From contig CP089276.1 of assembly GCA_023920165.1 (NCBI GenBank), positions 3,286,001 through 3,350,000 of the forward strand: DNA of 64,000 nt. The letters are read 5' to 3'. Made by a program: the position numbers and the translations under genes. This document shows positions 20,989 through 25,759 of the stretch, one piece after another. Numbering within the stretch: position 1 is the first letter of the stretch; every line of letters starts with the position of its first letter. The notes under the pieces are model-generated. The model was not told where the DNA came from, ran no database searches, and worked only from the letters and a program-made list of their open reading frames with translations. This DNA comes from Curvularia clavata. Lineage: Eukaryota.

Positions 20989-21869
20989 GCTGGCGAAGTG
21001 TTTGCGAGCGCCTGTTCGATATTGTCCGATGCGGCAATGCCTGCACAGATTTAGAGGACTGTGGCAGATACGACGAGTTCTGCCAGCACTGTTGGGGAGA
21101 GAGAAGCGGTCGTGGGAAGAGGAGGTGAGTGCGGTATCAATGTCCCAGGCAGAAAGCTGGAGCAAGCGGTGGTGCAGGCGGTGAGTTACATCTGCCGCGA
21201 CTAGTAGTACCAAAACCGGAAAACCAAAACACCGAGCTCACCTGCAAAGACAAGGCAACGACACAATGAATACGAAACAACTCTGACAACTGCAGCTGCT
21301 TTCAAAGGTAGAGTCGTACGTCATAATCCTAAACATCTGGCTATATTGAAAGGTAACAATCCTACCAAAATGTACTTCGTAGGGTAGTCCACCATTTCCA
21401 AGTTTTTGTGATCTAGGACAGGTACCGCCTTTTACATGTGAGGACTGCCGGATTCTTTTGTATTTTATCCAACAACTATCCGCATATAAGCCGATGTGAC
21501 AGCGAGTTGGCATATGAGAAGATGAGGCGTAGTATCGATGTACAAGGCAGAAAGCTGGAGTAAGCGGGGGCGCCAGCGGTGGGTTGTACTTGATGGTTAG
21601 CATATTTGATGTGACTCGCTATCGAACCTTTGTTGGACCAGACTTCGAGCAGGTCAAGACTCTTATTTTTCTGAACAATTTCGCAACCATGATTGGTATA
21701 TATGGTGATTCTGTACGGCATTGGATCCGAATTGCTCACCTAGTTCGGCTTAGCTTCAACCTGCAGTACCTGCTGTGCCAAGCCTGGAGCTCCGAGAAAA
21801 TGGGAAACTGCGTCCCCACAATTAAACATAACCTGTAGCAGCACACACCTTCTCTCGATTCCATACTCC

Positions 21870-23892
21870 ATGACCGGTTGCCTCCTATTCTGGAGCAAAC
21901 TTTCGAAGAGACTTTCGCGACAATGTCTGACAACGAAGGCCCCCGCCGCGACCAGGATTCGTCGAATCGCGACAGGAGCGACAAGAAACGCAAATGGGCA
22001 GATCGCGATCGCAGAAATGCTTCGAGGGGAGGCGGTGGGCGCCAGCACGGCAGCCGTCCGAACAAGAAGAGAAATATGGGGCGTAAGGACTATAAGTTAG
22101 CGATCTCCCACCCTACCAATGTGCGTGTCTAACTAAACAAGTTCCTCTCAATTAGACCGACGAGATCGCAATACCGAGCAGCAAGCCAAATATAAAGAAC
22201 AGGATGAGAAGGGCGATGAGCGACCTGCTTTGCCTGCCGCTTTTCCTGCAGAAGAGGTCGAGGCCGAGGAGCGCAGACCGAAGCGCAAAGTCGCAGTCAT
22301 GATCGGTTATTCAGGCACTGGCTACAAGGGCATGCAGATCGACTACAAGCAAAAGACAATTGAAGGCGACCTGTTCAACGCGTTTGTCGCAGCCGGCGCA
22401 ATCTCCAAAGCGAACGCATCAGACCCTAAGAAATCATCCCTCGTACGTTGCGCTCGTACCGACAAAGGTGTACATGCTGCCGGCAACGTCGTGTCGTTGA
22501 AGTTGATTATTGAGGATGAAGATATCGTCGAAAAGATTAACAGTCACTTGTCCGACCAGATCAGGGTGTGGGGTATCCAACGAACAATCGGCTCTTTCAG
22601 CTGCTACCAAGCCTGCGACTCAAGATGGTACGAATACCTGATTCCAACACACTCGTTCCTTCCCCCGCATCCTTCGAGTTATCTGGGCAAGAAGCTGGAA
22701 GAATATGCGGAAAAGGAGAATGATCTCGAGGGTTACCGCCAGAGGCAAGCCGAAGTCGCAGACTTTTGGCCCAACGTTGAGGAGAAGCACATTAAACCTA
22801 TACTAGAGTCTTTAGATGACTCAATACGACCACTGGTCCTGGAGGCGCTCTACAACATTGATGCTGTCGACGCACAGCCAGGGGAGGATCCTGTCATTGA
22901 CGCCTCAATCGACAATGCTGCCGAAGAAAAGAAACCCGTGAACACCGAAGCAGCCGAGGAGACCGTAAAGCCAGATGGAGGCGAGGCAGACACTAGCGAA
23001 CAGCCTGCAGATGAAGTCAAGCAAACCATCGATGCGATACAGCAAAAAGAACCTAGCATCACCCTGGATAGCTCCACTGATGGTTCGCGCCCCCTGCCCG
23101 AAGGCGTAGTGAACCAGCCGGTCCTGGAAGAAGCCATCAAAACGCTCAAAAAGGCTTACATCGATGTAAAGAAGGCTTACCGTATCTCCCCCGAACGACA
23201 GGCCCGCGTCCAAGAAGCACTGGACAAATACCTTGGAACACACAAATATCACAATTACACTGTCCACAAGAAGTTCAACGACAAATCAGCCCAACGCTAC
23301 ATCAAAAGCTTCAAGGTCGCCCCCAAGCCCATCATCATCAACGACACCGAATGGCTCAGCCTGAAGGTCCACGGTCAAAGCTTCATGATGCATCAGATCC
23401 GCAAGATGGTCGGCATGGCCGCACTAACTGTACGCTGCGGTACTGATCTTTCCATCATGGACAAGAGCTTCGAGAACAACGTCGTGCGCATCCCCAAAGC
23501 ACCCGGTCTAGGCCTGCTCCTTGAGCGACCCGTCTTCGACTCGTACAACGCCAAATTGGCCAAGCAGCACAACCGTGATCCAATCGATTTTAACAAGTAC
23601 AACGACCAGATTGAGGCTTTCAAGGAGCGTGAGATTTACCAGCGCATTTTCCGTGAAGAGGCACAAGGAAACCAGTATGTCTTTTTTCCGACTCAGCTGT
23701 TTGAAGAGTATACTGATCATGTCTAGGTTCAACACGTTTTTCACTCACTTGGATAACTACAAGGATCCTCAGTTCCTTTACTTGACGTCTGGGGGCATTG
23801 AGGCGACAAAGACAAAGCGTGAAGACAAGTCCGAGCAGCGCAAGTTTGAAGAAGACTCGGAGGATGAAAATGCCAGTGGTGGAGAGGGCTAG
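21870..23892 (+). CDS. PUS1: putative mitochondrial Pus1 isoform from an upstream ATG in a different frame; exons 21870-22095, 22156-23674, 23727-23892
   Basis: ORF 21870-22100 is presequence-like; the same donor (22096) spliced to the TAG acceptor at 22155 joins the catalytic frame (A|AC CGA CGA GAT). Confidence 0.6.
21923..23892 (+). CDS. PUS1: tRNA pseudouridine synthase Pus1 (TruA family), putative nuclear isoform; exons 21923-22095, 22142-23674, 23727-23892
   Basis: GYSGTGYKGMQ, catalytic RTDKGVHA, GQSFMMHQIRKM, PKAPGLGLLL; N-terminus carries KKRK and NKKRNMGRK. Confidence 0.9.
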
Positions 23893-24248: not shown

Positions 24249-25759
24249 CTATGCAGTCCTGGCGACAGGCTTCTTCTCACCACCCATGTCGTGCTCAGTG
24301 TAGTAGAAGTTCTCCTCGGGAATGCGACCCCTAAGGAACTCAGGCTCGGAGCCGCGGACGTAGATGTCCTCGAACAGGACCTTGCCAGTGGGCTCGGGAA
24401 CGGCCATGTTCTCAGCCTCGGCGACCTCAGCATCGACATCGGAGCGAGCCTGCTTGTCAATGGACTTGAGCTCCTCCTCGGAGGTAACGCCCCAGTCAAG
24501 GAGCTTCTGCTTAAGACCGGCAATGGGGTCGTTTGTGCTACGCATGCGCTGAATCTCCTCACGGGTCTGTCGTATATGTTAGTATTTGAAAACTGCCTCA
24601 GCTCCTCAATAAACTTACGCGGTATGTGGTTCCGGGGTCGGACATGGAGTGTCCTCCGTAACGGTAGGTGACGTATTCGTAGACGAGAGGACCCTTGCCA
24701 GCGGCGGCGTACTCCTTTCCGTACTTGACAGCGGCCTTGACAGCGAGGACATCCATACCGTTGATCTTCAGACCAGGGATGTATTGACCACGCTTGTAGT
24801 AATCGGTGAGGGCAGAGGAGCGGTTAGCAGCAGTACCCATACCGTACTTGTTGTCTATGTCAAGTTAGTAGACTTCACATTTATTTGGGTGGTAGTTACG
24901 CACTCTCGCAGCCAAAGATGACGGGCAGGTTCCAGAGCTTAGCCATGTTGAAAGCCTCAAAGACCTGACCCTGGTTGGAAGCGCCGTCACCGTAAAGGGC
25001 CAGGGTGACGTTCTTCTTGTTGGTGTACTGGCATGCGAAGGCGATACCAGCGCCAACAGGAACCTGGGCACCGACAATACCGTTTCCACCGTAGAATCCG
25101 GGGGCGAACATGTGCATGGATCCACCTTTTCCGTACGCGATACCCTCTCTTCTGCCGAGCAGTTCACCGATGATGGACTTGACGGTTGCGCCGCGCATCA
25201 GAGCGAAGCCGTGGCAGCGGTAAGCGGTGATGAGGTGGTCGGCACGCTCAATAGCGTGTTCGATACCGACGGCAACGGCCTCCTGACCGGTGGACAGATG
25301 GCAGAAACCCCGGATCTTCTTCTCCTTGTACAGTCTGTCGGCGGCCATTTCCATACGTCTGTTTCCGGTGTTAGAAGGTCATCATCTGCAGACATATCGA
25401 AATTCGGAGTTTCCATACCGGACGGCGACCATGTCGTAGTACATCTTCTTCAGCTCCTGCTTGGTGACGTTCAATGTGTACGGCGGCGGGTCCAGTTCGT
25501 ATGTCTCGAAGGCCTCGTCCGAGAGGCGGATCTCGAAGGGCTGGTCATCGGCCTACAAGCGGTCAGTGATCCATTGCATGGTCTACAGCCTCTCAATTGA
25601 CCGTCTCAGAGGGATTCTTACCGCAGGCACATTGGCCGGGTCGGTATGCGATGAAGCCGCGTCCGTGGTGACCGACCTGAAGGCGGGGCGCGCAACAGGG
25701 GCAATGACATTGCGCCTCAAGGGCGACGCAATGCTCCGCCTAATTGTCCTGGACAGCAT
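24249..25759 (-). CDS. PDA1: pyruvate dehydrogenase E1 alpha; exons 25759-25622, 25552-25419, 25358-24904, 24854-24619, 24566-24249
   Basis: [39 protein letters not shown]; four GT-AG introns; mitochondrial presequence. Confidence 0.96.

Follow-up and report, generated by a model that had tools for sequence, protein, structure and literature searches.

The PUS1 gene of Curvularia clavata, which encodes a TruA/Pus1-type tRNA pseudouridine synthase, begins with an exon that is open in two overlapping reading frames, each with a start codon of its own and each able to join the catalytic domain through a different 3' splice site. We propose that this gene, putatively a single synthase of the PUS1/PUS2 type, probably gives two proteins with different N-termini from its one first exon. 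The gene lies in a stretch of 64,000 nucleotides (nt) of the C. clavata genome (GenBank assembly GCA_023920165.1, contig CP089276.1, positions 3,286,001 to 3,350,000 of the forward strand), which we refer to as the window and in whose numbering all positions are given. With somewhat less confidence, though still leaning in its favour, we regard the exon as an ancient dual-coding exon of the Dothideomycetes and Leotiomycetes, in which some 170–270 nt would encode both an N-terminus of the nuclear localisation signal (NLS) type and a mitochondrial presequence. The choice between two acceptors 14 nt apart, a weak one near the branch site and a strong one farther off, would then set the productive start codon, splicing together with leaky scanning would set the division of this tRNA and snRNA pseudouridine synthase between nucleus and mitochondria, and the two isoforms would repress one another.

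The need that such an arrangement might serve is a familiar one. In budding yeast, nuclear PUS1 and mitochondrial PUS2 cover the two compartments between them, and in humans the isoforms of PUS1 achieve dual localisation from one gene by means of alternative, in-frame start codons. To our knowledge, fungi outside the yeasts that descend from the whole-genome duplication have one gene of the PUS1/PUS2 type, and the enzyme is needed in two compartments.

The locus comprises three exons on the plus strand (21870–23892). The translation of exon 2 matches the PF01416 profile over residues 355–462 with a score of 41.8 bits (cut-off 23.3), the same domain is present in all of the relatives among the matches listed, and exon 2 is 86–92% identical to proteins of Bipolaris, Exserohilum and Alternaria that are annotated as tRNA pseudouridine synthase 1, as befits a Pleosporaceae-like member of the Dothideomycetes. 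The N-terminal half of the open reading frame (ORF) translation contains the motif RTDKGVHA, which is invariant in 19 of 19 distant relatives and whose aspartate we take to be the catalytic residue. The features of the locus are collected in Table 1.

Table 1. Features of the PUS1 locus of C. clavata, in window coordinates.
Feature	Position	Strand	Basis
Upstream ATG; +1 with respect to the main start and in the frame of exon 2; weak context, T at -3	21870..21872	+	sequence
Exon 1 from the upstream ATG, 75 codons and 1 base; putative mitochondrial presequence form	21870..22095	+	frame arithmetic
Main ATG; strong context, A at -3; N-terminus of most annotated orthologs	21923..21925	+	sequence, orthologs
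173-nt stretch, putatively read in both frames	21923..22095	+	frame arithmetic
GTAAGG, donor-like, within main-frame Gly-Arg-Lys codons; would give a 73-nt in-frame intron with the TAG at 22155	22083..22088	+	sequence
Shared 5' splice site GTTAGC	22096..22101	+	equivalent donor used in spliced contigs L002, L016
CTAAC branch-site motif; distance of the branch A 9 nt to the first acceptor, 23 nt to the second	22129..22133	+	sequence
First acceptor, AAG; 46-nt intron, productive for the main ATG	22139..22141	+	sequence; used in L002, L016
Second acceptor, TAG, 14 nt downstream of the first; 60-nt intron, productive for the upstream ATG	22153..22155	+	sequence
Exon 2, TruA/Pus1 catalytic domain; the upstream-ATG form would begin at 22156	22142..23674	+	profile, identity to Pleosporaceae PUS1
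Intron 2, GTATGT ... TAG	23675..23726	+	L016-to-window alignment breaks at 23676/23727; exon 3 sequence continues in annotated orthologs
Exon 3 and stop codon	23727..23892	+	sequence, annotated orthologs

The two start codons of exon 1 are separated by 53 nt (2 mod 3) and so open different frames, to which we refer as the main frame (from the ATG at 21923) and the second, or +1, frame (from the upstream ATG at 21870). The main-frame N-terminus carries the basic clusters KKRK and NKKRN. The second-frame peptide, most of which overlaps the main coding sequence, is basic and rich in hydroxyl residues, has a net charge of +9 over its first 40 residues and meets its first acidic residue at position 49. 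An initial annotation, made from the letters of the window, had pointed to the two ATGs in different frames, the shared donor, the branch site and the pair of acceptors, and had described the upstream frame as open for 75 codons, lacking Asp and Glu in its first 48 residues and able to reach the catalytic frame only through the 60-nt intron (22096–22155), all of which we find to be so. It had also held the 46-nt intron (22096–22141) to be the main ATG's sole route into the catalytic frame; that this intron keeps the frame is correct, while the restriction to it is not, because the GTAAGG at 22083 joined to the TAG at 22155 also keeps the main ATG in frame.

In an mRNA spliced at the first acceptor, the upstream-ATG frame ends as an overlapping upstream open reading frame (uORF) of 79 codons, for which the TAG of the second acceptor doubles as the stop codon; in an mRNA spliced at the second acceptor, it is the main frame that comes to a stop, 12 codons past the junction. 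Either start codon can thus yield the enzyme with just one of the two acceptors.

For comparison, we collected 80 orthologous loci from metagenome contigs, which were scanned with the start of exon 2, and reduced these to 28 cluster representatives sharing less than 88% exon-2 identity; the loci were anchored on the conserved Met-Gly-Arg codons that lie 20 nt before the donor. Clusters were placed taxonomically by BLASTP to named database proteins, a few of them remaining unplaced, and include among the Dothideomycetes the Pleosporales, Aureobasidium pullulans (100%), Saxophila and Meristemomyces types (85–90%) and a Verruconis type (84%), and among the Leotiomycetes Hyaloscypha (96%), Cadophora (95%), Mollisiaceae (90%) and Lachnellula (86–88%). 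The null distributions were obtained from 3000 synonymous shuffles of the main frame over the representative set. Spliced contigs (L002, L016), the short locus L041, the lineage of L039, L043, L045 and L047, which has an additional intron inside exon 1, and L073, which shows an odd 35-nt gap after the first acceptor, were excluded from the frame statistics. In that lineage the additional intron lies about 250–400 nt upstream of the start of the match, and inspection by eye shows a retained upstream ATG, 26 nt ahead of the main one, as well as a TAG in the position of the second acceptor. In L073, compared with the near-identical L044 and L049, the first acceptor is joined some 35 nt deeper into exon 2, which may reflect a deletion, another splice form or an error of assembly.

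The second acceptor is conserved as TAG (18) or CAG (9) in 27 of the 28 representatives, in every case in the phase that brings the +1 frame back into the enzyme, and 50 of 54 distinct sequences keep one or other of these triplets. Its distance from the first acceptor is 14 nt in 26 representatives and 11 nt in L078; L051 has no second acceptor. The codon preceding the conserved Asp is CTA, TTA, GTA, ATA, CCA or ACA in 27 of the 28, so that the residue may be L, V, I, P or T, and since this residue varies while the bases YA in front of the G of the Asp codon are kept, the constraint acts on the nucleotides and not on the protein. The surroundings of the splice site are conserved too. A motif, CTAACTAAxCAAG, recurs around the branch site, the branch A mostly lies 8–11 nt from the first acceptor and 22–25 nt from the second, and the first acceptor itself reads AAG in 15 representatives, CAG in 9 and TAG in 4. 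A weak proximal site in competition with a strong distal one is the usual layout for alternative use of 3' splice sites.

The start codon of the second frame and the frame itself are preserved as well. An upstream ATG precedes the main ATG by 8–86 nt in 27 of 28 representatives, and in L027 it lies 4 nt downstream. The base at -3 of the upstream ATG is T in 11, C in 8, G in 8 and A in 1, and that of the main ATG is A in 23, G in 4 and C in 1. From the upstream ATG to the donor the +1 frame contains no stop codon in any of the 28 representatives, against a mean of 8.3 stops, and a minimum of 1, in the 3000 shuffles; in all 28 its openness extends from the donor to beyond the main ATG. The predictions made from the window, that orthologs would keep the second frame free of stops and would conserve the acceptor spacing modulo three, are thus borne out, the latter in 27 of the 28.

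As a separate observation on the region of the upstream ATG, Leotiomycete-type loci (L035, L042, L044, L049, L054, L057, L066 and L039/L043/L047) share around it the string CAATTGAGGG(C/G)T(G)ATGAA. This is more conservation than a start codon requires, and the same string is found in L056/L061 without the ATG.

The composition of the second-frame peptide provides a further line of evidence. Over the first 30 residues its net charge ranges from +3 to +8 across the representatives (median +5), where the main frame has a median of -2, and the first acidic residue stands at a median position of 43, as compared with 2.5 in the main frame. The 40 residues at the start of the second frame include 14 acidic ones over the whole set, where 39.4 are expected and the lowest count in 3000 shuffles is 21. 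Between the two classes the peptides cannot be aligned, yet all of them begin basic. The source of the depletion can be traced to individual codons: Asp and Glu arise in the second frame only from main-frame Arg and Gly codons that end in GA, and such codons make up 14 of 135 Arg/Gly codons in the early part of the exon, as against 170 of 493 in later exon 1 (p = 9e-9) and 426 of 1549 in exon 2 (p = 3e-6). Acidic residues are thus actively avoided in the second-frame N-terminus through the choice of synonymous codons. Signatures of selection are present in both frames: the main frame as a conserved protein, and the second in its lack of stops, its depletion of acidic residues and its Arg/Gly codon bias.

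Transcripts of two relatives bear on the use of these signals. Compared with the genomic contigs L003 and L015, two contigs, L002 (1954 nt) and L016 (1970 nt), have had the first and a later intron spliced out, and both use the donor equivalent to 22096 together with the first acceptor. This makes the 46-nt form the assembled mRNA and presumably the major one. The 5' ends of the two contigs precede the upstream ATG by 32 and 25 nt, respectively, and this ATG therefore lies inside the transcripts of these two relatives.

The other form occurs in public gene models. We inspected the N-termini of the 200 database proteins listed, 136 of which extend for 60 residues or more beyond the catalytic motif on its N-terminal side. 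Most models among these matches follow the main frame and the first acceptor, at least three types of N-terminal model occur, and six models carry a second-frame N-terminus joined in the phase of the second acceptor; these come from Paraphaeosphaeria sporulosa, Lojkania enalia, Cudoniella acicularis, a Claussenomyces metagenome-assembled genome (MAG), Venustampulla echinocandica and Chlorociboria aeruginascens. Among cluster members, P. minitans KAL5420008.1 is likewise of the second-frame type. For P. sporulosa, GenBank lists two predicted isoforms under the one locus tag DPSP01_012516, KAL5373652.1 (634 residues), in the main frame with the first acceptor, and KAL5373653.1 (636 residues), in the second frame with the second acceptor; the last 562 residues of the two proteins are identical and only the N-terminal 72 and 74 residues differ. 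Two products under one locus tag usually mean, in our estimation, that the annotation pipeline saw alternative transcripts. The second-frame peptide of the window can be aligned over its full length with the N-terminus of KAL5373653.1 (P0065, residues 1–74; E value 3e-10), and it also aligns with the N-terminus of the Lojkania model (P0118; E value 2e-9). P. sporulosa and Aureobasidium pullulans have the same architecture.

Four more models among the matches listed are hybrids. In some annotated models (P0194, P0200, P0141 and P0121, from Pseudogymnoascus, Cadophora and Phialocephala) the second-frame part joins exon 2 at other in-phase positions or the frame switches part-way, and they may reflect either further in-phase acceptors in these lineages or frames that were forced by gene finders.

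The gene models also bring into view a third way of splicing the exon. By consensus the GTAAGG at 22083 looks a better donor than GTTAGC, and the 73-nt intron that joins it to the second acceptor, which is in frame for the main ATG, has both the better donor and the better acceptor; this intron is found in 12 Alternaria models among the matches listed (P0008–P0018 and P0020). It might be, then, that the Pleosporaceae pair the second acceptor with this donor to make an in-frame nuclear form nine residues shorter, to which the frame of the upstream ATG would be irrelevant. We consider this very improbable as the explanation of the second acceptor, which is kept in 27 of 28 representatives, while a GT at the position of the GTAAGG is present in 7 of 28, and the Alternaria-type spliced contig L002, unlike the 12 Alternaria models, shows the 46-nt intron, with the downstream donor and the first acceptor. 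We have accordingly rejected the GTAAGG as a donor that would account for the second acceptor generally, although a form made with it could coexist with the two-protein arrangement proposed here.

The elements described above suggest how two proteins might be produced. Most scanning ribosomes would bypass the weak upstream AUG and initiate at 21923, with a minority initiating at 21870, in the manner of leaky scanning. The main form would combine the start at 21923 with the first acceptor (22141) and yield an enzyme with a basic, NLS-like N-terminus. The minor form would combine the start at 21870 with the second acceptor (22155) and furnish the catalytic domain with a presequence-like N-terminus, for which the spliceosome would need to skip the first acceptor and take the TAG 14 nt downstream. 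Of the mismatched pairings, a start at 21870 on the first-acceptor mRNA would give the 79-codon overlapping uORF ending at 22153–22155, and a start at 21923 on the second-acceptor mRNA would run into the stop 12 codons past the junction. If this is true, the isoforms would repress each other's translation, because each form of the mRNA makes the other start codon a decoy. The initial annotation had read the exon as encoding two targeting signals in two frames, and this interpretation is supported by the openness of the second frame among orthologs, the conservation of the acceptor, the transcripts of relatives, the paired annotation in P. sporulosa and the basic, acid-poor N-terminus; each of its refuting conditions that was put to the test turned out in its favour. 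While the logic of the sequence and its conservation are established, we infer that scanning is leaky, that the second acceptor is used in C. clavata and that the second form is imported into mitochondria.

The same mismatched pairings might instead be the function of the arrangement, which would then consist of two regulatory devices with no second protein: an overlapping uORF that damps the main ORF, and a second acceptor that gives a frameshifted mRNA for nonsense-mediated decay. The 79-codon uORF of the first-acceptor mRNA and the early main-frame stop of the second-acceptor mRNA are what such devices would look like, the spliced contigs (L002, L016) showed the first-acceptor form only, and it is about an even chance a priori that the frame of the uORF is also the one that the acceptor rescues. 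Regulation of this kind does not, however, predict a frame without stops up to the donor in all 28 representatives (null mean 8.3), a depletion of acidic residues that is confined to the first 40 residues or the uniformly basic N-termini of peptides that are otherwise unalignable, and it leaves unexplained the two full-length isoforms that are annotated at one locus. On this evidence we hold the purely regulatory explanation to be unlikely.

Returning to the proposal of two proteins from a dual-coding exon, there are a number of observations that count against it, and these we bring together here. The first concerns the window itself, where the second frame stays open in 67% of synonymous shuffles (P = 0.67) and its first 40 residues are free of acidic residues in 19% (P = 0.19). 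R, G, D, K, N and S abound in the main-frame N-terminus, whose codons hardly ever carry T at the second position, and from this composition it follows that the +1 frame can hardly gain stops. We have for this reason rejected the open second frame as evidence in itself, since it follows largely from the composition of the main frame (P of 0.2–1.0 per lineage). The pattern in the window is by itself no more than chance, and its significance rests on the comparison of orthologs. That the +1 frame is a functionless one, open by chance over a low-complexity coding region, would be a sufficient account of the window taken alone; it is contradicted by all of the comparative results, those for the acceptor, the open frame and the composition alike, and we give it almost no credence.

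The comparative results have exceptions and limits of their own. The second acceptor is replaced by CCG in L030/L032 and by GGT-G in the L051/L067 clade, and the upstream ATG is lost in one lineage, L056/L061. The products of probabilities over the 28 representatives, which come to 1e-21 for a YA codon at the second acceptor, given the residue and the codon usage of each lineage, and to 10^-4.4 for the absence of stops from the +1 frame, overstate independence because the clusters share ancestry; the direction of every comparative test is the same despite this kinship. The placed part of the sample covers the Dothideomycetes and the Leotiomycetes. Most of the single second-frame models in the databases may be ab initio predictions. 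A word-based search of a collection of 5.8 billion proteins with the second-frame peptide of the window found no protein longer than 134 residues at E <= 10, a weak result that speaks of the low sensitivity of this kind of search, because homologous N-termini later surfaced by way of the catalytic domain.

The remaining points of this kind concern the presequence. The mean of the maximum hydrophobic moment is 0.632 for the second frame, compared with 0.435 for the main frame and 0.602 for the shuffles (P = 0.06), and the count of hydrophobic residues, at 266, does not differ from that of synonymous shuffles (264.6, P = 0.46). Beyond charge, then, there is no independent sign in the sequence of an amphipathic helix. 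The charge pattern of the second-frame N-terminus fits that of a matrix presequence, and the features that support the presequence reading are all charge-based. One may suppose, then, that the second-frame isoform is real but that its N-terminus is no presequence, in which case the protein would have some other destination or would be a cytoplasmic form that has lost the NLS region. The amphipathicity measures, which are not distinguishable from the null, are in keeping with this, and the isoform would in any case be without the basic clusters of the main N-terminus. To be set against it are the net charge of the first 30 residues, which is between +3 and +8 in 28 of 28 representatives, the avoidance of acidic residues, the first of which stands at a median position of 43, and the mitochondrial need for the enzyme to which yeast PUS1/PUS2 and human PUS1 testify. 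We judge such a non-mitochondrial destination to be decidedly improbable. The case of Cryptococcus also speaks for a mitochondrial need (PMC7049704).

It is instructive to compare the exon with known systems. Saccharomyces cerevisiae has the same family of enzymes and the same two-compartment need, but meets it with two genes, PUS1 and PUS2, while the PUS1 lineage studied here apparently does so with one gene and two frames. In Cryptococcus neoformans, CnPus1 is the product of a single gene, homologous to both yeast PUS1 and PUS2, and has been put forward as a dual-localised enzyme; for Cryptococcus and Neurospora, dual localisation by leaky scanning is described with a first AUG in weak context and a second in strong context (PMC7049704). 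The proposed C. clavata arrangement is like that of CnPus1 and human PUS1 in that one gene would serve the nucleus or cytoplasm as well as the mitochondria, the first AUG being weak and the second strong, with the presequence borne by the longer N-terminus. It is unlike them in that their AUGs are in frame, with the presequence between the two, whereas the AUGs of C. clavata PUS1 are out of frame, the presequence-like peptide is laid over shared nucleotides and the 3' splice site must move by 14 nt for the catalytic frame to be regained.

The reading of one exon in two frames also has precedents. In SRC1/HEH2, splice sites a few nucleotides apart cause a downstream exon to be read in two frames, and fungal MDH is another case (PMC7491326). 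Dual-coding regions that arise from non-triplet alternative splicing also include many human cases. On the reading proposed here, C. clavata PUS1 shares with SRC1/HEH2 a non-triplet alternative splice site and an exon sequence read in two frames, both of them long conserved; it differs from SRC1, where the exon concerned is downstream, the start is single and one product is truncated, in that the exon is upstream, there are two starts and the products would converge on the catalytic domain. With regulatory overlapping uORFs (uORF data for fungi in PMC7049704), the upstream frame has in common a weak, out-of-frame upstream AUG, an overlap with the main start and an end soon after the junction of the major mRNA. 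It is set apart from them by being open to the donor, by selection that appears at the level of composition and by the conserved acceptor that rejoins it to the enzyme.

What is already known, therefore, is the dual localisation of Pus1 by alternative N-termini on the one hand and dual-coding regions by non-triplet alternative splicing on the other. What we have not found in print is a two-frame upstream exon with two starts, one catalytic domain and two sorting signals that is conserved across two classes of the Pezizomycotina. Our literature searches returned no paper describing a two-frame PUS1 exon, no account of how filamentous ascomycetes supply PUS1 to both compartments and nothing relevant on the Paraphaeosphaeria annotation. 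If the proposal is true, the exon would offer a clear case, deeply conserved, of overlapping-frame coding in a nuclear gene of a eukaryote, with a sorting signal in both frames and a need for splicing and translation initiation to act together in its expression. It would also explain the disagreement among public PUS1 gene models, and it suggests a rule for annotation, whereby an out-of-frame upstream ATG in combination with an acceptor shifted by a non-multiple of three flags genes of this type.

Two minor observations were made on the flanks of the gene. Upstream, at 21793–21801 and some 70 nt before the ATG at 21870, lies the motif (T)CGAGAAAAT, which recurs at a similar distance in L001, L003, L004, L006, L007, L009, L018 and L019, whether or not it overlaps an ATG, and which may be a promoter element; in the window a uORF of 12 codons that starts at 21800 overlaps CGAGAAAAT. 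Downstream, on the minus strand at 24249–25354, there are ORFs that resemble pieces of an intron-split gene for a metabolic enzyme.

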